Shown piece by piece: positions 7,942-60,724 of a stretch of 64,000 bases of DNA. A program made the position numbers and the translations under genes. Position 1 is the stretch's first letter; the number at the start of each line of letters is the position of its first letter. Location: contig MFIU01000001.1 in NCBI GenBank assembly GCA_001778985.1, positions 190,934 to 254,933 of the forward strand, given 5' to 3'. The stretch comes from Candidatus Giovannonibacteria bacterium RIFOXYD1_FULL_48_21 (GTDB taxonomy: Bacteria; Patescibacteriota; Minisyncoccia; JACPKW01; UBA11713). A model generated the notes under the pieces. It was not told where the DNA came from. It saw only the letters and a program-made list of their open reading frames with translations, and did not search any database.

Positions 7942-9119
7942 GTGATATGAAAGACCGGGAAATAGAAAAATTAATTAAAGCGGAAGAGAAACGCCAGAAG
8001 CGGGTGATTAATTTAATTCCCTCGGAAAATTATGTTTCTCAAGACGTGCTTCGGGCGCTGGGCTCGGTGCTGAATAATAAATATTCCGAAGGGTATCCCG
8101 GGAAGCGTTATTACGGCGGAAATGTCATTATCGACAAAGTAGAAAACCTTTGCCGCAAGCGAGCTCTTAAACTTTTCAAATTAAAACCGGAGGAATGGCA
8201 CGTAAACGTGCAGCCGCTTTCGGGGAGCCCGGCGAATCTCGCGGTCTACGCGGCCTTGGTGCCGCTGGGCGGAAAAATCATGGGCTTGACGCTCTCCTCG
8301 GGCGGGCATCTTACCCACGGACAGAAAGGTTCTGTAACCGGAAAAATTTGGACGCAGGTGCCCTACGCGGTTGACCCCAAAACAGAGACGCTTGATTACG
8401 ATGCTCTCCAGAAACTCGCGATACAAGAAAAACCAAATATAGTCGTGGCTGGCTATACGGCTTACCCGCGATTTGTTGATTGGAAAAAATTCAAAGAGAT
8501 AGCAAATGCTTCCGGCGCCATACTTATGGTCGACATGTCTCATATGGCGGGGCTCATTGCCGGCGGAGTATATCCGAGTCCGTTTCCGTACGCGGATGTG
8601 GTGACTACCACAACGCATAAAACTCTCCGCGGCCCGCGCGCCGCGATTATTTTTGCGAAAAAGGACGCGCGAGAATTTGATAAAAAAATCGACAAAGCGA
8701 TTATCCCCGGGCTCCAGGGTGGGCCGCATGAAAACCAAATCGCGGCGGTCGCGGTTTGTCTCAAGGAAGCCATGAATCCCGCGTTTAAAAAGTATGTTAA
8801 GCAAATTATAAAAAACGCGAAAGTATTGGCACTGAGCTTGTCGAAGTGTGGCTGGCGGGTTATTTCGGGGGGCACGGATTCGCATCTGCTTCTGGTAGAC
8901 ACCTGGATGGACGGCAAGGGAATTTCAGGCAAGGATGCCGAAGCCGCTCTTGAAAAAGCCGATATTATCGTAAATAAAAATACGATTCCCGGAGACCAGC
9001 GAAGCCCGCTTGACCCATCCGGCATTCGCCTCGGCACCCCGGCCGTGACCACGCAAGGAATGAAAGAACGCGACATGAAAAAAATCGCCGAAAGAATTCA
9101 TAAGATTTTGTCGCGATGA
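7938..9119 (+). CDS. glyA: Serine hydroxymethyltransferase
   Basis: LIPSENYVS, YSEGYPGKRYYGG, and the PLP-Lys region (TTTTHKTLRGPR). Confidence 0.95.
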   Translation: MSDMKDREIEKLIKAEEKRQKRVINLIPSENYVSQDVLRALGSVLNNKYSEGYPGKRYYGGNVIIDKVENLCRKRALKLFKLKPEEWHVNVQPLSGSPANLAVYAALVPLGGKIMGLTLSSGGHLTHGQKGSVTGKIWTQVPYAVDPKTETLDYDALQKLAIQEKPNIVVAGYTAYPRFVDWKKFKEIANASGAILMVDMSHMAGLIAGGVYPSPFPYADVVTTTTHKTLRGPRAAIIFAKKDAREFDKKIDKAIIPGLQGGPHENQIAAVAVCLKEAMNPAFKKYVKQIIKNAKVLALSLSKCGWRVISGGTDSHLLLVDTWMDGKGISGKDAEAALEKADIIVNKNTIPGDQRSPLDPSGIRLGTPAVTTQGMKERDMKKIAERIHKILSR

Positions 9120-9964
9120 TTGTTGACGGCAAAGCGCTTGCGGAGAAAATAAAAGCCGAATTGAAAGCGGATGTTTCGAAGCTAAACAAAAAAATTCGAC
9201 TGGCGGTGGTTAAAATCAGCTCGGATGCCGCGACTGAAAAATTTTTGGAGCAGAAAAGGAAATTCGCAGAGGCGATTGGAGTGGATGTCAGAATTTATGA
9301 AATACATCCGGATATCTCCACGAATAAACTCCGCGAGAAAGTTTCAGAGATTGTGCATATCAAAGAAAACAACGGGGTCATAGTTCAGCTTCCTTTGCCG
9401 CCGCAGATAAACACGCAATATATTCTGGACGCGATAGTTCCGGAAAAAGACCCGGACATGCTTTCTTCTAAAAGCTGGGGAGCGTTTGCGGCCGGATCCG
9501 CCCGCCGGCGGACAAAGATTCTGCCGCCGGTTGCGGGAGCGGTTAAAGCCGTATTTGATGAGCATAAAGTCGAGATTCGCGATAGAAACGCAGTAGTGAT
9601 AGGCGCCGGCCGCCTGGTGGGCAAGCCCCTCGCGACCTGGCTTTTGAACGCCGGGGCCACGGTTTCCGTGATTCACAGGGGCACCAAGAATCCGGAAGAA
9701 TATACTCGAAAAGCCGATATTATTATTTCCGGAGTTGGAAAACCGAAATTGATAACTCCTGTGATGGTGAAAGACGGGGTGGTGGCGATTGATTGCGGCA
9801 CTTCGGAGTCCCCGCCTGGGGCGGGGCAGGCCTCCAGGCAGGTGGTCGGAGATATTGACCCTGGAGTTTCAGAGAAAGCTTCTCTTTTCGCGCCGGTTCC
9901 GGGCGGGGTCGGCCCGGTTACGGTCGCGATGCTGTTTAAAAATCTAGTTGAGCTGTCAAAATGA
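9116..9964 (+). CDS. folD: Bifunctional methylene-THF dehydrogenase / methenyl-THF cyclohydrolase
   Basis: Typical FolD N-terminus (IDGKALAEKIK) and dinucleotide-binding region. Confidence 0.9.
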   Translation: MIVDGKALAEKIKAELKADVSKLNKKIRLAVVKISSDAATEKFLEQKRKFAEAIGVDVRIYEIHPDISTNKLREKVSEIVHIKENNGVIVQLPLPPQINTQYILDAIVPEKDPDMLSSKSWGAFAAGSARRRTKILPPVAGAVKAVFDEHKVEIRDRNAVVIGAGRLVGKPLATWLLNAGATVSVIHRGTKNPEEYTRKADIIISGVGKPKLITPVMVKDGVVAIDCGTSESPPGAGQASRQVVGDIDPGVSEKASLFAPVPGGVGPVTVAMLFKNLVELSK

Positions 9965-10428
9965 ATTATCTGGATTTGTTGATTATTTTTCTCGCGAAAT
10001 ATCTCGGCTGGGCGCTTGGAATTCTGGCGGTTTTTATTTTTTTAAAAAATAGGCGTCTTCTTTTGGAATCCTTCCTCTCGGCCGCGGTTGCGCGTTTCGG
10101 GATTACGGACCTTATCCGCTATTTTTACAATAGGCCGCGGCCATTTGAAGTTGGAGATTTCACTCCTTTGATTTCGCATGAATACGGCTATTCTTTTCCA
10201 TCTGGGCACGCCGCTTTTTTCTTCGCGCTCGCGACTGCGATATTTTTATACAACCGCCGCTGGGGCGCGGTGTTTTTCATCGGCGCTATTTTAATCAGCC
10301 TCGGCCGCGTTTGGGCTGGCGTTCATTGGTACTCGGACATTTTAGGAGGCGCGATTGTCGGTATTTTGACGAGTATTTTAGTTAATTTTCTTGTCAGAAA
10401 ATTTCAAAGGCCCGGGTCAAGTGTCTGA
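9961..10428 (+). CDS. PAP2 family phosphatase (undecaprenyl-diphosphatase-like), membrane
   Basis: All three PAP2 motifs present: KxxxxxxRP (YFYNRPRPF), PSGH, RxxxxxHxxxD (RVWAGVHWYSD). Confidence 0.8.
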   Translation: MNYLDLLIIFLAKYLGWALGILAVFIFLKNRRLLLESFLSAAVARFGITDLIRYFYNRPRPFEVGDFTPLISHEYGYSFPSGHAAFFFALATAIFLYNRRWGAVFFIGAILISLGRVWAGVHWYSDILGGAIVGILTSILVNFLVRKFQRPGSSV

Positions 10429-10704
10429 CCGCGGGCCTTGAGGTTGGTAAGGAACATCCGGTATAGATTTTATAAATTCATTATATTTTATTTCTTCAAG
10501 TTCCCTCCTAAGTAGTGCCTCAATGTGTCCAATGGCTTCTCCGGAGAGCCGCACCAGATATGACTTTCTGTCATTTCCACCTTGACGCGCTTTATTGAAT
10601 TCCGCGAGAATTTCTTCGAGCATGGCCCGCACGTCAACCGACTTTTTTCTGCGGCCGCCGAGATGCAGGTATAGCGCAAAACGTCTCCACCATAAAAAAG
10701 TCAT
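10417..10704 (-). CDS. Hypothetical small protein; weak HisE/MazG-like resemblance; real start probably the internal Met at about 10623
   Basis: ORF only; convergent with the PAP2 gene; no confident motif. Confidence 0.3.
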   Translation of the reverse strand: MTFLWWRRFALYLHLGGRRKKSVDVRAMLEEILAEFNKARQGGNDRKSYLVRLSGEAIGHIEALLRRELEEIKYNEFIKSIPDVPYQPQGPRSDT

Positions 10705-10743
10705 TTTATCCTCCTTTAATCTTTAAATTTTTTAAATTGCTGT

Positions 10744-10830
10744 TGGTGCCGCGGGAGGGGGTCGAACCCTCATGAGCTTTCGCTCGCAGGATTTTGAGTC
10801 CTGTGCGTCTGCCAGTTCCGCCACCGCGGC
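10744..10830 (-). tRNA. tRNA-Leu(CAA) with a long variable arm and encoded CCA
   Basis: Hand-folded cloverleaf: acceptor GCCGCGG/CCGCGGC, anticodon loop CTCAAAA, T-loop TTCGACC. Confidence 0.85.
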
Positions 10831-10837
10831 ATATTAT

Positions 10838-11074
10838 TTATTTTAATTGATCTAGAAATTTTCTTCCTTGCCCACTTTTAAGAAATTTTTCTCTTTTGCG
10901 TGCTTCCTCGTATGAAGCACAATTTTCAACAAGTACAGTTTCAAATGTTGCGTACGGTTTCGTAGTCAAATTATATCCTTCGTTGTGCTGTTTTAATCTT
11001 CTCGCGAAATTATTGGTAATTCCTACATATCTGTAGTTGTGTTTCATACTTTTAATTACATATACATGCACCAT
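10838..11074 (-). CDS. Small GIY-YIG nuclease family protein (paralog 1)
   Basis: VYVIKS...YVGIT...RL..HN GIY-YIG signature; 78 aa; stop lies 7 nt from the tRNA-Leu 5' end. Confidence 0.8.
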   Translation of the reverse strand: MVHVYVIKSMKHNYRYVGITNNFARRLKQHNEGYNLTTKPYATFETVLVENCASYEEARKREKFLKSGQGRKFLDQLK

Positions 11075-11185
11075 AGGATTTTGAGCTTGCCCGCCTTAGG
11101 CGGGTCGTGCGCGGTCGCCAGAGGCGACTAAATCTGCCAGTTCCGCTTTACCCGCCAGAGGCGGGCACCGCGGCCCGTCTCGTCT
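11075..11185 (-). pseudogene. Degenerate duplicate of the tRNA-Leu(CAA) 5' half (GCCGCGGTG..GCGGAACTGGCAGA..CTCAAAATCCT), interrupted by three 15-nt GC hairpins; ends exactly at the GIY-YIG ATG
   Basis: About 34 nt of ordered identity to nt 1-43 of the downstream tRNA; inserted hairpins CCCGCCTCTGGCGGG, GTCGCCTCTGGCGAC and CCCGCCTAAGGCGGG. Confidence 0.7.
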
Positions 11186-11270
11186 CGCCTCGTCGAGACA
11201 AGCAATACCTCGAATTTAAAAGTTTTTTAGCTTATTGTCAATTTGATTAATTTTTTATACGATTTTATAT

Positions 11271-12170
11271 ATGGCGGAATTTGGAGAACCCAGAAGAAGT
11301 TCAAGTATTTTCTTTATCGAACTTGACCGCATCAAGCCCAATTCCATGCAGCCCCGCACCGAATTCGATGAGGGGCGGCTTTCTGAACTCGCGGAATCAA
11401 TCCGGCAGTATGGGGTGCTGCAGCCGCTGGTGGTTCTCCGCCAGGAGAAGGCCACACCCACCGGCGTTGTCGCTGAATATGAGCTTATTGCCGGCGAGCG
11501 CCGTTTGCGCGCGGCCCGCTTAGCGGGCCTTCGCGAGGTGCCGGTTATCATCCGGCAGGAGTCCGCGGACAAAATTAAACTTGAGCTCGCCTTGGTGGAA
11601 AACGTCCAGCGGGAGGATTTAAACGTGGTTGACCGCGCCCAGGCCTTCCGCCGGTTGAATGAAGAATTCGGTCTTGGTCACAGGGATATCGGCGCGAGAA
11701 TCGGAAAATCGCGCGAATACGTTTCAAACTCGCTGCGTCTTTTGTCCCTTCCTTCCGAACTCCAGGCCTCGTTGCGGGACGGACGCATAACCGAAAGCCA
11801 CGCCCGGCTGTTGCTGACTTTGCAGTCTCAACCCCAGGAACAAAAAGCGCTCATGGACGATATTATTTTCAGAGGGCTTAACGTTCGCGAAACCGAACGC
11901 CTCACCAAAGAGCTTACCGCCGGAGTTAAAAAAGAAATCAAAAATCTTGACCCGGAAACAAAGACTTTGGAAGAAAAGCTCGCCGCGGCCCTGGGGGCTC
12001 GCGTCTATATTTCAAAAAATGAATCAGGCGGCCGGGTTTCGATTGAATTTTTTTCGCCGGAAGAATTAAGGGCTTTTGTGGAACGCTTCGAGCCCGAACC
12101 TATGAGCCCAGAAGGACAAGTGGTTTTGGCCGAGGTTCGGCCGGAAGACTTGGAAGAGTTTACGATCTGA
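11271..12170 (+). CDS. parB: ParB/Spo0J family partition protein
   Basis: ParB N-terminal box (GVLQPLVV, LIAGERRLRAARLAGL) and HTH region. Confidence 0.85.
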   Translation: MAEFGEPRRSSSIFFIELDRIKPNSMQPRTEFDEGRLSELAESIRQYGVLQPLVVLRQEKATPTGVVAEYELIAGERRLRAARLAGLREVPVIIRQESADKIKLELALVENVQREDLNVVDRAQAFRRLNEEFGLGHRDIGARIGKSREYVSNSLRLLSLPSELQASLRDGRITESHARLLLTLQSQPQEQKALMDDIIFRGLNVRETERLTKELTAGVKKEIKNLDPETKTLEEKLAAALGARVYISKNESGGRVSIEFFSPEELRAFVERFEPEPMSPEGQVVLAEVRPEDLEEFTI

Positions 12171-13884
12171 CCTCGGTGGTAACTTTTTTAACCCCCGCTA
12201 TTTTTTCGAGCTTCGGCTTGATTTTTTCAATCTCAGCCTTGTTTTTAGGGATGAACCTTACACGGATGGGCGCTTCTTCGTTGCCGGAGCGGGCCGATAT
12301 TAAAGTCTGAATGTTGATGCGGTTCTTGGCGAAGATTGAAGTGATGTCTTTGATAAAGCCCACCCGACTTTTTCCGTAAATTTTTACTTCCACCAGTTTT
12401 TCTTCAGGTTCCAGAAAAGTTCTCTTTGGCGAAATCCGGAGCGCCCTTCGAATTCTGTTTTTAGCCAGATTGGTTTTAACCAACGAGAGCCATTCCGGCG
12501 AAGGCCTTTTGTTTTTTTGGGTGATTATTTCTACCACTTCTCCCGACTGGAGTTCCCGCTCGAAAGCGACCATCCGTCCGTCTACTTTGGCGCCAGACGC
12601 GCGGTTGCCGATCTCCGAATGGATATGATAAGCGAAGTCCAGAGGAGTGGCGCCCTTGGGCAGGTCGATTACGTCGCCCTTCGGCGTTAAGACGAAAATT
12701 CGGTCTTGGAAAAAATCTATCTTGAACGCTTCGAGAAGTTCTTCGGAAGAAGAGCGCTCTTTTTTGAATTCCTTGTGCCAGTCGTGAAGTTGGCGAATCC
12801 AATTAAATTTCTGGCCCAGGATTTTTAAACCTTCTTTCGGTTTTCCGGCCTCGCTCCAGGCCCAATGGGCCGCAATGCCCGCTTCGGCCTCGCGGTGCAT
12901 CTGGGGAGTCCGAATCTGGAATTCCACCATGGTCCTGGCTTTGGTAAAAACGCTGGTGTGGAGCGATTGGTAGCCGTTCGGCTTGGGGAGAGCGATGTAA
13001 TCCTTGAATTTTCCAGGGACCGGTTTCCATAGTTTGTGGATTATGCCCACCGCGGCGTAGCAGTCCTTAATGTCGGGTACGATGATTCTTAAAGCTATCA
13101 AGTCTGCCAGATGCGTCCAGTCGCCGTCGTATCGCTTCAATTTTTGCCAGATGGAATAAAGGTGCTTGGCGCGGTAAGAGAGTTCGAGCGGTCTGATATT
13201 TTCTTTTAAAAGTTCTGCTTCGACCTGCGGCGCGATTTTCTTGAGGTAGCGTTCCCGCTCCGGCGCGATTTTTTTAACTTCGGAGGAAATCCTTTCGTAC
13301 TCCTGGGGGTAGAGGTATTTCATCGATAAATCTTCCAGCTGGGCTTTGACATTCCACATCCCCAAGCGTTCGGCCAGCGGGGCGTAGAGCGAGAGCGTTT
13401 CTCCGGCAATCCGTTCCCGCTTTTCCGGAGCAAGCCAGTCGGCAGTTTCCATATTATGGAGGCGGTCCGCGAGCTTGATGATTACCACCCGGATATCTTC
13501 GGCTACCGCCATGAACATTTTTCTGACCGACTCCAAGGCGCGGTCGGTGCCGGAGGCTTTAACTTTCTCCACCTTGGTGACCGCGTCCACCAAAAAGGCG
13601 ATTTCTTCTCCGAATTTTTTTCTAATCTCTGCGAGGGAGGTCGGGGTAGTTTCGGCCACGTCGTGCAGAAGCCCGGCCGCGATTGTGGCCCGATCCATTT
13701 TTAACTTAGCCAGTTTTAGCGAGACGGCGGCGGAATGAGTGAGGTAATCCTCGCCGGAGAGTCTTTTTTCGCCCGCGTGGATTTGGGCGGCGAAATCAAA
13801 AACCTTTTTCAAAAATTCTCTGTCTTTGACGGCGAGATTTAGGGAACTTAGTTCGCGTTCGTAATTCTCCCAACCCATAGTCAT
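12160..13884 (-). CDS. rel: Bifunctional (p)ppGpp synthetase/hydrolase, RelA/SpoT family
   Basis: HD hydrolase domain (LLHDVAE), synthetase domain and TGS region; the MTMGW start overlaps the topA stop (ATGA). Confidence 0.85.
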   Translation of the reverse strand: MTMGWENYERELSSLNLAVKDREFLKKVFDFAAQIHAGEKRLSGEDYLTHSAAVSLKLAKLKMDRATIAAGLLHDVAETTPTSLAEIRKKFGEEIAFLVDAVTKVEKVKASGTDRALESVRKMFMAVAEDIRVVIIKLADRLHNMETADWLAPEKRERIAGETLSLYAPLAERLGMWNVKAQLEDLSMKYLYPQEYERISSEVKKIAPERERYLKKIAPQVEAELLKENIRPLELSYRAKHLYSIWQKLKRYDGDWTHLADLIALRIIVPDIKDCYAAVGIIHKLWKPVPGKFKDYIALPKPNGYQSLHTSVFTKARTMVEFQIRTPQMHREAEAGIAAHWAWSEAGKPKEGLKILGQKFNWIRQLHDWHKEFKKERSSSEELLEAFKIDFFQDRIFVLTPKGDVIDLPKGATPLDFAYHIHSEIGNRASGAKVDGRMVAFERELQSGEVVEIITQKNKRPSPEWLSLVKTNLAKNRIRRALRISPKRTFLEPEEKLVEVKIYGKSRVGFIKDITSIFAKNRINIQTLISARSGNEEAPIRVRFIPKNKAEIEKIKPKLEKIAGVKKVTTEVRS

Positions 13885-26833: not shown

Positions 26834-26889
26834 AAGATTTATTATTCGATTTTAACAGTTTTCGGTCCCTCGATAAAAAATGCTGTCTG

Positions 26890-26977
26890 CGGTAGGGGTG
26901 AGATTCGAACTCACGGTGCCATTTCTGACACAGCAGTTTTCAAGACTGCCGCCTTAAACCACTCGGCCACCCTACCG
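26890..26977 (-). tRNA. tRNA-Ser(UGA) with a long variable arm, no encoded CCA
   Basis: Cloverleaf: acceptor GGTAGGG/CCCTACC, anticodon stem GCAGT/ACTGC, loop CTTGAAA, T-loop TTCGAAT. Confidence 0.85.
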
Positions 26978-27235
26978 TTACTCTTTTAACGAGTCTGTTA
27001 ATCTCGATAATAAATGTCTTTTTTCGGTATATTTTTCTTTCAATTCTTTTTCTCTTTTGAAAGCATCATATTTACTTGTAAATGCTTCGTAATATATAAG
27101 CTTCCAAGGCCTCCCCCTTTTAGTTGAACTTACGCCTCCACTGTTATGTTCTACTAATCTTTTTTTGAGATCACCGGTACAACCTATATATTTTGTACCT
27201 GTGATACTGCTTTTAAGGAGATAGACGTAATGCAT
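26978..27235 (-). CDS. Small GIY-YIG nuclease family protein (paralog 2); the ORF track extends it to a TTG at 27244
   Basis: HYVYLLKS..YIGCT.DL.KRL.EHN signature; the stop codon abuts the 5' end of tRNA-Ser(UGA). Confidence 0.8.
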   Translation of the reverse strand: MHYVYLLKSSITGTKYIGCTGDLKKRLVEHNSGGVSSTKRGRPWKLIYYEAFTSKYDAFKREKELKEKYTEKRHLLSRLTDSLKE

Positions 27236-27292
27236 TTTATTCAACCACTCCCTCGGCCGTAGCCCGGCCTACGGGCGAGGCTGCCACCCCAC
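27236..27292 (-). pseudogene. Degenerate duplicate of the 5' about 20 nt of tRNA-Ser(UGA) (GGTGGGGTGGC..CCGAGGGAGTGGTTGAAT) interrupted by a GC hairpin; ends at the GIY-YIG start
   Basis: Ordered identity to the tRNA acceptor/D-arm; inserted palindrome CCGTAGGCCGGGCTACGG. Confidence 0.55.
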
Positions 27293-27294
27293 CT

Positions 27295-27531
27295 TCATCG
27301 GCCGTATTTTTTTAGGCGGTAAGCGTCCGAGTGGTCTATCAGGTTTTCTTTATCGGCTCTGTCTATTATTTTGTTTAGCTCTTTTTTTGACAAACCAGAT
27401 GGTCGCAAAGTTTCTGGCTTGGCCATCTTAAAAAGCTCTTTCTTTTCTTTTGGGCCTAACTTCAATCCCTTGACTAAACCCTTAAGTTCTTTACTTGATT
27501 TGATATGACTTTTTTCGTCAAACAGTCCCAT
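27295..27531 (-). CDS. Hypothetical Lys-rich small protein (78 aa)
   Basis: ORF only. Confidence 0.35.
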   Translation of the reverse strand: MGLFDEKSHIKSSKELKGLVKGLKLGPKEKKELFKMAKPETLRPSGLSKKELNKIIDRADKENLIDHSDAYRLKKYGR

Positions 27532-27544
27532 GTTGTTATTTTAG

Positions 27545-27802
27545 TTATTTCTTAATAAAAGGCAATCGGATTAATTTCTTAAAGGCCTCTCCAGATTTAT
27601 AAGATTTGATCTCGATCTCTCTTTTTCTGGCAGACGTTTTGTCGGTCATGAATTCTTTATAAATTAGTTGCCACTGGCGGTAAGCTTTTGTGGAACGAAC
27701 CTTCCCAGCATTGTGAGACCTTAGTCTTTTATCCAGGTTTCCCGTGTATCCAATGTAGTGGCGCTGGAAATTTATACTTTTTAGGATATAGACCTCATAC
27801 AT
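27545..27802 (-). CDS. Small GIY-YIG nuclease family protein (paralog 3)
   Basis: YEVYILKS..YIGYT.NL.KRL.SHN signature; 85 aa. Confidence 0.8.
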   Translation of the reverse strand: MYEVYILKSINFQRHYIGYTGNLDKRLRSHNAGKVRSTKAYRQWQLIYKEFMTDKTSARKREIEIKSYKSGEAFKKLIRLPFIKK

Positions 27803-28660: not shown

Positions 28661-28749
28661 GGTGGGTTGGCCGAGCGGCTTAAGGCAACGGATTGCTAAT
28701 CCGTGGGGGCGAAAGCCCCACAGAGGTTCGAATCCTCTACCCACCGCCA
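28661..28749 (+). tRNA. tRNA-Ser(GCU) with a long variable arm and encoded CCA
   Basis: Cloverleaf: acceptor GGTGGGT/ACCCACC, anticodon stem ACGGA/TCCGT, loop TTGCTAA, T-loop TTCGAAT. Confidence 0.85.
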
Positions 28750-28769: not shown

Positions 28770-28885
28770 GCTCGCCCGCTACCTGCCCGTCCGGCAGGCG
28801 GGCGCGGGCTCGCCAGCCCTGCCTGCGGCAGGCAGGCGTTTTTCGGGGAAATTTTCCGCCATAGGCGGATCTGCCTATGGCATGA
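28770..28885 (+). terminator. Cluster of GC-rich hairpins after tRNA-Ser(GCU): CCTGCC-CGTCC-GGCAGG; CCTGCCTGC-GGCAGGCAGG followed by TTTTT (likely intrinsic terminator); GCCATAGGC-GGATCT-GCCTATGGC
   Basis: Read directly; a T-run follows the second hairpin. Confidence 0.55.
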
Positions 28886-53517: not shown

Positions 53518-53693
53518 CGCTCTCTCCTTCCAAGTTAAAGAATTTTTTCTATAGTAGCATATTTTATAAAAGATAAAGACCCCTAATAAAAAGTATAATT
53601 ATTTTTCTTCCTCGAGGACTTGTTTCAGAAGCTCCGCAGTTGTAGCACATACAACTTGATTTTATTTATTTTGAGTTTACAATGCAATATATC

Positions 53694-53766
53694 GCGGGGT
53701 GGAGGAGTAGTACCTCGGGGGGCTCATAACCCCCAGGCGCCGGTGCAATTCCGGCCCCCGCAACAA
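53694..53766 (+). tRNA. Initiator tRNA-fMet(CAU)
   Basis: C1xA72 mismatch, anticodon stem GGGGG/CCCCC with loop CTCATAA; near-identical to the E. coli tRNA-fMet acceptor and anticodon arms. Confidence 0.8.
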
Positions 53767-53771
53767 AATTG

Positions 53772-53843
53772 GCCGGCGTAGCTCAGTGGCAGAGCGAGGG
53801 ACTCATAAGCCCTAGGCCGCAGGTTCAATCCCTGCCGCCGGCA
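53772..53843 (+). tRNA. tRNA with CAU anticodon (elongator Met or Ile2-lysidine type)
   Basis: Cloverleaf: acceptor GCCGGCG/CGCCGGC, loop CTCATAA, T-loop TTCAATC; A31.G39 mismatch. Confidence 0.7.
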
Positions 53844-53933
53844 CACTTCGACTCACTGTGTTCGCTCAGTGTAAACTTTTAAATAAGAGAGTCGAAGTGC
53901 CCTGAGCCTGTCGAAGGGCAACAAGTTTTATTT

Positions 53934-60391: not shown

Positions 60392-60532
60392 GGCTCTGCA
60401 GGTCCAAGAAAAAAGGGAGTGGTACTTGATATCACCCCTTTTTTTATTTGACTTTTCTTTTTACTTTGCTACCCTTAATTTAAGCCCTCTGGGGCTTTTA
60501 AAAATCCCCGCCAAAGGCGGGCAAGCCCAAAA

Positions 60533-60724
60533 ATGAATCTATTTCAAAAACTTATCAATTATTTCAAGGAAACCCGGCAGGAGATGCGCCACGTCAATTG
60601 GCCCACGCGCCAAAACACGATTCGCTTCACGCTTTTGGTCGTAGGCGTTTCGGTCGCGGTGGCGGCCCTTCTGGGCCTTCTGGACATTCTTTTCCAATTT
60701 TTATTGAATAGGTTTGTTTTGTAA
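60533..60724 (+). CDS. secE: Preprotein translocase subunit SecE
   Basis: 63 aa, single C-terminal TM, position directly upstream of nusG; E..KV.WP SecE pattern (EMRHVNWPT). Confidence 0.75.
   Translation: MNLFQKLINYFKETRQEMRHVNWPTRQNTIRFTLLVVGVSVAVAALLGLLDILFQFLLNRFVL

Follow-up and report, generated by a model that had tools for sequence, protein, structure and literature searches.

SegB of phage T4 is a free-standing GIY-YIG homing endonuclease that is encoded in the T4 tRNA gene cluster, recognizes a T-psi-C motif and drives the inheritance of itself and of neighboring tRNA genes (PMC2330249). In fungal mitochondria, mobile open reading frames (mORFs; Allomyces atp6; Glomus atp6, atp9, cox2 and nad3) consist of an endonuclease ORF, inserted in an essential gene, and a duplicated gene terminus; that of atp9 is of the GIY-YIG type, and a horizontal origin of mORFs was inferred from the divergence of the two termini (PMC3630166). 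Repetitive extragenic palindromes (REPs) are short GC-rich palindromes with a 4-nt tag at one end (PMC3733652), and GC clusters and hairpin elements (yeast, sponge and double-hairpin types) spread in AT-rich mitochondrial genomes (PMC4478555, PMC2800124). Here we describe a locus in a 64,000-nt stretch (hereafter, the window) of Candidatus Giovannonibacteria bacterium RIFOXYD1_FULL_48_21 (contig MFIU01000001.1), where the gene for a 78-aa GIY-YIG protein lies between an intact tRNA-Leu(CAA) gene and a partial copy of it that is split by GC-rich hairpins. We consider it probable that this locus is a free-standing, homing-type cassette, attached to a tRNA gene, spread by recombination and furnished with cognate DNA hairpin modules.

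All parts of the locus are on the minus strand. The initial annotation, made from the window alone, had placed hairpins and a tRNA copy before the ATG of the 78-aa ORF, followed by its stop codon, 7 nt and tRNA-Leu(CAA), and this layout was present as described. The intact tRNA-Leu(CAA), which is the functional copy, occupies 10744-10830 (ARAGORN; Rfam RF00005, 54.2 bits), and a 7-nt spacer (ATAATAT, 10831-10837) separates its first nucleotide from the stop codon of the single-domain nuclease ORF (10838-11074, stop codon included). The interrupted copy (11075-11174) contains tRNA nt 1-43 in order and ends at the ORF start, as had been claimed. It consists of block 1 (nt 1-9, GCCGCGGTG, 11166-11174, 9/9 identical), block 2 (nt 10-23, GCGGAACTGGCAGA, 11133-11146, 14/14), block 3 (CGCGCACGA, approximately nt 24-32, 11105-11113, 7/9 against CGCACAGGA of the resident tRNA) and block 4 (nt 33-43, CTCAAAATCCT, 11075-11085, 11/11), the last of which abuts the ATG. 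The three 15-nt GC palindromes of the initial annotation were also found as quoted, and each proved to carry a 4-nt tail (TAAA, TTTA when inverted, or CAAG), so that every insert is a 19-nt unit with a 6-bp GC stem and a 3-nt loop. These are unit 1 (CCCGCC-TCT-GGCGGG + TAAA, 11147-11165), with orthologues in loci L002, L084, L094 and L012; unit 2, which is inverted (TTTA + GTCGCC-TCT-GGCGAC, 11114-11132) and shared with relatives; and unit 3 (CCCGCC-TAA-GGCGGG + CAAG, 11086-11104), with orthologues at an unchanged tRNA position in L001, L007 and L084. Long-gap local alignment of the copy with the tRNA gave a score of 52.3, compared with 17.8 ± 3.2 (maximum 29.8) for 2000 dinucleotide shuffles and 34 for the best of 1358 other window tiles, and the upstream similarity is therefore significant, in agreement with the earlier claim. 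This alignment was used in place of a statistic based on chaining exact blocks of at least 6 nt, which was dropped as too noisy (null maximum 33 vs. 34 observed).

The sole promoter-like site upstream of the copy, ORF and tRNA is a sigma-70-like TTGACA-17-TAAATT at 11213-11241. The same motif stands directly 5' of the tRNA at unoccupied sites of the L085 type and 5' of the split copy in L002 and L083. Between promoter and copy the window has an extra GC hairpin, GTCTCGACGAGGCGAGAC (11182-11199), which is absent at this place in L002; its 14-mer GTCTCGACGAGGCG recurs in L045, from a distant member of Patescibacteria, where it is part of a 32-nt insert in a split tRNA-Gln copy, and this points to one more class of hairpin. 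In a permissive Rfam scan, the segment 10600-11400 yielded the intact tRNA only, with no intron and no other RNA family. A group I intron with its endonuclease was rejected on this basis and because ARAGORN found the tRNA uninterrupted. An integrase-type genomic island was also rejected: a direct repeat is present, but the sole ORF between the repeats encodes the 78-aa GIY-YIG protein.

This protein matched PF01541 over residues 2-67 (55.5 bits vs. a cut-off of 22.6; E = 7e-15). In 30 homologues, Y16, R26, H30 and E62 were invariant and Y5 nearly so; we take these residues, from what is known of the superfamily, to be the GIY Tyr (Y5), the YIG Tyr (Y16), the catalytic Arg (R26), and the His/Tyr and metal-binding Glu (H30 and E62). 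Its AlphaFold model (predicted local distance difference test score, pLDDT, 95) showed the order strand-strand-helix-strand-helix expected of GIY-YIG domains, and the top fold matches were GIY-YIG domains only. The closest sequence profiles were those of UPF0213 proteins (BH0048, E = 1e-7; EF2693, E = 6e-6). The nuclease domain of Slx1 was matched at a template modeling (TM) score of 0.68-0.70 and a root mean square deviation of ~2 Å, and the catalytic domain of I-TevI at a TM score of 0.58. The Slx1 alignment spans the nuclease domain only, i.e., 69-74 columns of chains of 250-300 residues, and the 78-aa protein ends there. Assignment as an Slx1-type nuclease was rejected, the C-terminal zinc-finger domain being missing, and so was an I-TevI/Seg-type homing endonuclease by domain layout, as the protein is one domain with no separate DNA-binding region; the NCBIfam model for group I intron endonucleases scored 16 bits, far below its cut-off of 56. 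Among orthologues, codon positions 1 and 2 were 78% identical and position 3 was 53% identical, a pattern indicating that the ORF is under purifying selection. Many public gene calls (e.g., P0275, 114 aa; many others of 100-140 aa) start too far upstream. The corresponding database proteins have spurious N-terminal extensions because these calls read through the GC-rich split copy.

The association with tRNA genes was not limited to the window. Using a profile of the 30 homologues, we retrieved 80 loci from species-representative genomes labeled as Patescibacteria, Bacteroidota, Ignavibacteria, Planctomycetota, Verrucomicrobiota, Omnitrophota, proteobacteria and two archaea. A tRNA gene on the same strand was located within 150 nt of the ORF in 62 of them, usually 0-20 nt past the stop codon and in some cases immediately before the start codon; where the ORF came first, the stop codon of some ORFs lay within the tRNA. 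Rfam added eight loci, for a total of 70: three with transfer-messenger RNA (tmRNA) directly upstream of the ORF, three with tRNAs missed by ARAGORN or clipped by a contig end, and two with group I introns. Five of the remaining ten were clipped by a contig end; in the other five, the ORF was immediately followed by a tRNA-like 3' fragment split by hairpins. In 32 of 54 testable pairs, part of the tRNA was present again across the ORF, at z of at least 6.5. The 5' part was copied where the ORF preceded the tRNA and the 3' part where it followed, and tmRNA loci had the same signature. Mirror-image elements exist, in which the tRNA is followed by the ORF and then by a split 3' fragment. The copies ranged from nt 1-22 to full length, and the duplication could include ~85 nt of promoter (L023 and L025) or tandem units of whole ORF plus tRNA (L076, L022 and L018). 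The family amounts to ~2,700 clusters at 50% identity. Only one relative was found among 2.9 million viral contigs, and a phage origin was rejected on this ground.

Some of these loci had introns or tRNA-like ends beside the ORF. Group I introns were directly beside the ORF in L041 (748-1102; labeled Woesearchaeota) and L069 (2861-3082; Omnitrophota); they probably belong to intron-containing tRNA genes which ARAGORN cannot call, and two kinds of tRNA-gene parasite may share one gene there. In L051 and L078, tRNA-like 3' ends (T-arm, acceptor and CCA) that neither ARAGORN nor Rfam at its gathering threshold called were located directly upstream of the ORF and could represent unusual tmRNA or tRNA-like genes.

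The inserts that split the copies were precise and stereotyped. The tRNA blocks between them were typically perfect (e.g., 54/54 and 50/50), and in all 51 inserts of at least 12 nt no tRNA base was lost. Insert lengths were 19 nt (n = 24), 30-31 nt (n = 9) and 20 nt (n = 5), and the rest were mostly multiples. Four hairpin classes were distinguished: a 15-nt NNCGCC-NNN-GGCGNN that carries a YARR tail and occurs in both orientations; a pair of 15-nt hairpins that abut; a 20-nt class of the CCTGCCTGCCGGCAGGCAGG type; and a longer tRNA-Ser module. Up to 150 nt from the ORFs, GC hairpins had densities of 7.7 and 4.3 per kb, about 100-fold above those in the rest of the loci (0.05-0.1 per kb); around 17 control tRNAs far from any GIY-YIG ORF the density was 0.2 per kb. 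When the 51 inserts were mapped on the cloverleaf, 20 fell in the D-loop, 15 in the T-loop and 10 inside stems, against 46% expected for stems (p = 8e-5, the loci being related rather than independent).

The unit TTTA-GTCGCC-NNN-GGCGAC at tRNA position 23 was common to the window, L001, L002, L003, L006, L007, L084 and L094. Over these eight orthologous elements its tail and stem were 98.4% identical and its loop 64%, and the hairpin is accordingly more constrained than the protein, whose ORF was 78% identical at codon positions 1 and 2 and 53% at position 3. Besides, hairpin class co-varied with protein similarity (permutation p = 2e-4), both within and between host groups. Judged by this conservation and co-variation, the hairpins are a functional, co-inherited part of the element. 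Both orientations of the unit occurred within one putative transcript, and one-mismatch stems showed no excess of sense-strand wobble pairs (G.T 6, A.C 13); the hairpins would act at the level of DNA.

The units also showed signs of insertion. In 73 oriented tagged units, the left flank had G at -3 in 46 and a purine at -1 in 65, and the right flank had C or T at +2 in 63. The YARR tail of a unit recreates the left-hand motif, which fits the tandem units that were observed. In T-loops the palindrome TTCGAA was flanked by two inverted units, as if once hit from either strand, and a clean one-unit indel distinguished two loci ~97% identical. No target-site duplication was seen around the units, the 4-nt tails not being repeats of the flanks, and no inverted repeats bounding the ORF, as in a giant hairpin unit, were seen in the junctions inspected. 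Hairpin arms, which may or may not derive from neighboring tRNA sequence, partially matched GGCGG of the tRNA-Leu D-stem and GGCCGAG of tRNA-Ser. The same CGCC core, however, occurred in T-loops of tRNA-Pro, tRNA-His and tRNA-Glu without such sequence nearby.

Occupied and empty sites were sought by scanning metagenome contigs with the 3' half of tRNA-Leu(CAA). At empty sites the same promoter motif leads straight into an intact tRNA, and ORF and hairpins are absent (L082, L087, L088 and L089; L085, L090 and L093; L081; L092), whereas L083, L086, L091, L084 and L094 were occupied; the two states were patchy among relatives. In the empty-site genomes L085, L090, L093, L082 and L087-L089, tRNA-Leu(CAA) is co-strand with genes for FolD, PAP2 and ParB, with ~2.8 kb of other genes between, while in the window (9100-12200) and in genomes of the L002 type it is inverted and directly divergent from ParB. 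This rearrangement goes with the occupied state.

Comparison of occupied alleles revealed exchange. L084 and L094 share 100% identical flanks, over 1 kb long to either side, around an exchanged patch, which runs from inside the copy (after CGCGCA) through the ORF, at ~85% nucleotide identity, to ~35 nt past an identical tRNA. L102 and L104, which encode the same identical protein, are identical in the ParB flank, in copy and ORF and over tRNA nt 1-15; beyond nt ~15 their tRNA-Leu(CAA) alleles differ and the DNA further downstream is unrelated. Among L096, L102 and L104, alleles of the copy and of the tRNA were shuffled. These loci have undergone recombinational exchange, with one breakpoint in the D-loop region of the tRNA. 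The combination of occupied and empty alleles with exchanged flanking sequence, a trait of homing endonucleases, is found at this locus. In a neighbor-joining tree the proteins grouped by tRNA isotype, across phyla. The neighborhood of RelA-ParB and copy-ORF-tRNA-Leu(CAA) was kept in L001, L002, L007 and L012, with ParB identities of 52-72%.

The copies themselves indicate which part travels with the ORF. Block 3 of the window (CGCGCACGA) is of the L007 type of tRNA-Leu, and the resident tRNA (CGCACAGGA...TCCTG) is of the empty-site type. After removal of hairpins, the copies of L001 and L003 were nearer to tRNAs of other lineages than to the adjacent tRNA; in L004 and L005 the adjacent tRNA was a different isoacceptor from the split copy; and L033, L055 and L058 had a split tRNA-Glu 3' fragment beside the ORF and no intact tRNA-Glu. 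These mismatches and fragments imply that the split fragment is inherited with the ORF. Also, L012 had an orphan tRNA 5' half directly after the ORF. Together with nt 1-15 shared by L102 and L104, this shows that the first nucleotides of the working tRNA can travel with the ORF as well.

The window contains a second element. Intact tRNA-Ser(UGA) (26889-26976, minus strand; ARAGORN) is preceded by GIY-YIG paralog #3 (26978-27235, minus strand; 85 aa from the ATG; tblastn and ORF list), whose stop codon lies 1 nt before the tRNA. This paralog was 100% identical to a Ca. Giovannonibacteria protein, and its relatives at 60-73% identity were all directly upstream of tRNA-Ser (CGA, GCU or UGA). On its far side, at 27240-27293 (minus strand), a long hairpin, CCTCGCCCGTAG-GCCGGG-CTACGGCCGAGG, interrupts a tRNA-Ser 5' fragment, GGTGGGGTGGC ... 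GAGTGGTTGAA. Compared with GGTAGGGTGGCCGAGTGGTTTAA of tRNA-Ser, this fragment alone was not significant (score 22.5, z ~2), and it was accepted because L106-L110 carry the same tRNA-Ser 5' fragment split by the same CCTCGCCCGTAG...CTACGGCCGAGG module. GIY-YIG paralog #2 (27545-27802, minus strand; tblastn and ORF list) has no directly adjacent tRNA, and alignment gave no significant match to a tRNA copy beside it. Between it and paralog #3 there is an unrelated, lysine-rich ORF of 78 aa (27295-27531, minus strand), and a long-loop hairpin, CCCCGCTT...AAGCGGGG, precedes paralog #2. Paralog #2 could be an older layer of a nested array; tandem ORF arrays were found elsewhere, in L016, L037, L076 and L022. 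Within the window, different hairpin types are paired with different paralog clades.

Hairpins were also present elsewhere in the window. Just 3' of tRNA-Ser(GCU) (28661-28749), a cluster at 28780-28885 (plus strand), which has no ORF, combines the 20-nt class (CCTGCCTGCGGCAGGCAGG) with the double 15-mer class (TCCGCCATAGGCGGA+TCTGCCTATGGCA); no significant match to a tRNA-Ser fragment was found between its hairpins, and the cluster may be the remains of an element after loss of its ORF. In the FolD ORF (9116-9964), the unit CCCGCC-TGG-GGCGGG-GCAGG at 9811-9831 (plus strand) forms an in-frame 7-aa insertion, PPGAGQA, that was missing from nine FolD relatives; L001 had a different insertion at that spot. 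Therefore hairpin units can land in coding sequence, as palindromic elements of Rickettsia likewise do. Two GC hairpins were located at 60482-60525 (plus strand) in the 5' leader of a secE-like ORF (start at 60534). One of them (60507-60525) is a complete 19-nt tagged unit, CCCGCCAAAGGCGGG+CAAG, with neither a GIY-YIG ORF nor a tRNA nearby. A tandem pair of tRNA-Met(CAU) genes (53693-53764 and 53772-53844, plus strand), 7 nt apart and followed by tRNA-Asp, had no associated GIY-YIG ORF or hairpin unit.

On the reading that we favor, the cassette would have three parts: a gene for a minimal single-domain GIY-YIG nuclease, an intact tRNA that keeps the host viable and, across the ORF, the partial tRNA copy split by hairpins. 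It would have no promoter of its own and would be transcribed from the tRNA promoter through the split copy. The nuclease would most likely start the process by breaking the DNA of a tRNA gene in the D-loop region (Leu clade) or the T-loop region, by analogy with SegB, and recombination at tRNA genes of one isotype would then allow the cassette to spread and genomes to exchange it; exchange and a breakpoint were observed, and the direction of transfer is the part we infer. The tRNA-derived sequences on both sides of the ORF could serve as portable homology arms for repair-mediated spread. The target would be duplicated rather than split, so that an essential tRNA stays functional, as with the mobile ORFs of fungal mitochondria. 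Hairpins placed in D- and T-loop motifs of the spare copy most likely destroy the target of the nuclease, providing self-immunity, and most likely also break up a direct repeat through which the ORF would otherwise be lost; in addition, they may be binding or cutting sites of the nuclease itself.

Several observations weigh against this homing cassette. The intact tRNA of the occupied allele keeps unbroken D- and T-loops, for which self-immunity does not account, and neither disruption of a site nor breaking of a repeat needs 98% hairpin conservation. Sequence-specific recognition of a tRNA gene by the protein is doubtful because it has no separate DNA-binding domain and its fold is nearer to Slx1 than to I-TevI; for all members, both nuclease activity and target are predictions. 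Synteny persists across deep Parcubacteria divergence and the GIY-YIG proteins diverge about as much as housekeeping proteins, which long vertical inheritance fits as well as repeated homing. Many of the loci share phylogeny and their counts are not independent events, and taxonomic labels of metagenome-assembled genomes (MAGs) may be wrong. Finally, the units found off tRNA copies, in the FolD coding sequence and the secE 5' untranslated region (UTR), suggest that hairpin units have some mobility of their own.

We take one alternative seriously, though with clear reservation. Here the units would be miniature mobile elements, similar to REPs or miniature inverted-repeat transposable elements, or to ends of insertion sequences of the IS200/IS605 type, which insert 3' of a short motif and leave the target unduplicated, and the Slx1-like GIY-YIG protein would mobilize them in trans. 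They would pile up in the spare copy because they prefer its D- and T-loop motifs as targets and because it is the only tRNA-like DNA tolerating insertion. It overlaps with the homing cassette, but the hairpins would be the primary mobile agent and the nuclease would be specific for hairpins, not for tRNA. The insertion context shared by 73 units, the tail that recreates the left motif, the tandem units and the TTCGAA site hit from both strands all speak for it, as do the lack of base loss and of target duplication, the one-unit indel between ~97% identical loci and the solo units in FolD and the secE 5' UTR. Hairpin class tracks protein clade, the fold is nearest to the branched-DNA nuclease Slx1, and a palindrome with a 4-nt tag resembles tagged REPs (PMC3733652). 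Against these points, units are rare off GIY-YIG loci (~0.05-0.1 per kb, counting all GC hairpins), orthologous units are fixed at the same tRNA positions over deep divergence, which is more like inheritance than transposition, and the flank motif is partly confounded by shared ancestry and tRNA loop composition. To our knowledge, moreover, no GIY-YIG enzyme carries out strand transfer. A bolder and rather improbable version is that the 78-aa protein, far from being a homing endonuclease that reads sequence, is a hairpin- or branch-specific nuclease that mobilizes cognate 19-30-nt units and inserts them precisely, with no duplication of the target, 3' of G-R-R in single-stranded or extruded loops of tRNA genes, the same chemistry duplicating and occupying tRNA and tmRNA genes. 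If so, it would represent a new minimal transposon-like class with the organization of REPs and their associated RAYT transposases, or of IS200/IS605, built on a GIY-YIG enzyme and using tRNA cloverleaf DNA as a landing pad.

The remaining explanations are weaker. According to the initial annotation, the ORF with a fresh tRNA 5' half had inserted at the 3' side of the anticodon stem, and the upstream native half with its palindromes was the product of decay. Its expectations of a family of small, tRNA-tied GIY-YIG ORFs flanked by partial tRNA copies, of tRNA adjacency elsewhere (70 of 80 loci with tRNA, tmRNA or intron-tRNA) and of empty sites in related genomes were borne out by the relatives in many phyla and by promoters leading straight into intact tRNAs. 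The copy does occupy the place of the empty-site tRNA, just past the same promoter; L012 has its orphan 5' half after the ORF, L102 and L104 have ORF plus nt 1-15 joined to different remainders, and fungal mobile ORFs work in this way (PMC3630166). The decay part is nevertheless largely refuted by exact blocks free of scattered substitutions, 51 of 51 precise inserts, stereotyped units with D- and T-loop bias, and hairpins that are 98% conserved and specific to protein clades. Nor did the copy prove to be a displaced native half: it looks foreign in block 3 of the window (L007 type, next to a tRNA of the empty-site type) and differs from its neighbor in L001 and L003-L005. Insertion specifically at the anticodon stem disagrees with copies extending from nt 1-22 to full length, with mirror-image forms and with larger duplications. 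We now consider the model as a whole very unlikely; the polarity is probably the opposite, in that the split copy, and not a fresh 5' half, moves with the ORF. A domesticated, vertically inherited host module serving the tRNA gene, through repair or gene conversion, protection against integrating elements or control of expression, appears unlikely too, if somewhat less so. It is consistent with the RelA-ParB neighborhood in L001, L002, L007 and L012, purifying selection on the ORF, conserved copy and hairpins, and near-absence from viral contigs. It does not agree with the patchiness of occupied and empty sites, several paralogs per genome at different tRNAs and in tandem arrays, alleles exchanged within identical flanks, clades that follow tRNA isotype and not host across phyla, or split copies that mismatch the adjacent tRNA in several genomes. 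We also give little credence to an RNA-level device, in which the split fragment and hairpins would form a structured UTR that stabilizes or regulates the nuclease mRNA, or would prevent misfolding or misprocessing of the tRNA. The only promoter-like site is upstream of the copy, which would then serve the ORF as its 5' leader; the hairpins are thermodynamically stable; and REP hairpins of E. coli are known to stabilize mRNA. But both unit orientations occur in one transcript, there is no sense-strand G.U excess, the fragment is 3' of the ORF in mirror-image elements, and no Rfam family was matched.

Small GIY-YIG proteins are among the commonest uncharacterized gene products of Patescibacteria (or candidate phyla radiation), and our analysis ties them to tRNA and tmRNA genes through a fixed arrangement of three parts. 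If this holds, the arrangement defines a selfish element of chromosomes that enters essential RNA genes and leaves them active. It also accounts, in the annotation of MAGs, for many strange tRNA pseudo-fragments and for many ORFs that are called too long. The natural pairs of protein and hairpin, available in several classes (19-nt tagged, 20-nt, 30-nt double and the longer tRNA-Ser type), are candidates for a very small, programmable nuclease system with structure or sequence specificity, and in-frame landing in FolD makes hairpin units a marker of recent change in streamlined genomes. We found no published description of this architecture in the full-text literature searched (open-access papers only, so that earlier work may have been missed), and a recent survey of interruptions in tRNA genes of Patescibacteria does not mention it.

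Precedents exist for parts of the system, namely free-standing GIY-YIG homing genes, duplication of target ends and tagged palindromic repeats; what appears to be new is their combination, in which tRNA and tmRNA genes of bacterial chromosomes are joined with a 78-aa nuclease and with cognate hairpins splitting a spare copy, and the hairpin system could well be a novelty by itself. The proteins are closest in profile to UPF0213 (YhbQ-like) and in fold to Slx1, with which they share the catalytic core. UPF0213, however, has no assigned function or known genomic partner, and Slx1 has an added zinc-finger domain and works with Slx4 on branched DNA; no link of either to tRNA genes or cognate palindromes was found in the open-access literature searched. 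Like REP/RAYT and IS200/IS605 systems, the locus has tagged palindromes around a cognate nuclease gene, which insert precisely beside a motif, in either orientation and without target duplication. It differs in that the enzyme is GIY-YIG and not HUH/Y1, and the units are shorter (19 nt) and concentrated in spare tRNA copies instead of being scattered between genes; membership in REP/RAYT was rejected since the adjacent gene is not of the HUH type, and the resemblance is architectural. Similarly, our 30-nt double-hairpin class resembles hairpin elements of mitochondria, which we liken to it by architecture and not by sequence. Those elements are organellar and are not known to have a specific nuclease gene or to target tRNA loops. 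With mORFs the locus shares an ORF flanked by one functional and one partial copy of the end of the invaded gene. In contrast, mORFs target mitochondrial protein genes and bring a foreign functional terminus, whereas here the targets are tRNA and tmRNA genes, it is the non-functional split copy that moves with the ORF, and this partial copy is broken by conserved hairpin modules and not left to diverge. SegB, of the Seg/I-TevI type, is encoded by a phage and is larger, while the present proteins are single domains of ~78 aa, found on cellular chromosomes and hardly at all on viral contigs, and no duplicated, hairpin-split tRNA copy has been reported at SegB loci. The likeness to SegB lies in a free-standing GIY-YIG gene placed among tRNA genes, here with a spare copy broken at T- and D-loop motifs and one recombination breakpoint in the D-loop.

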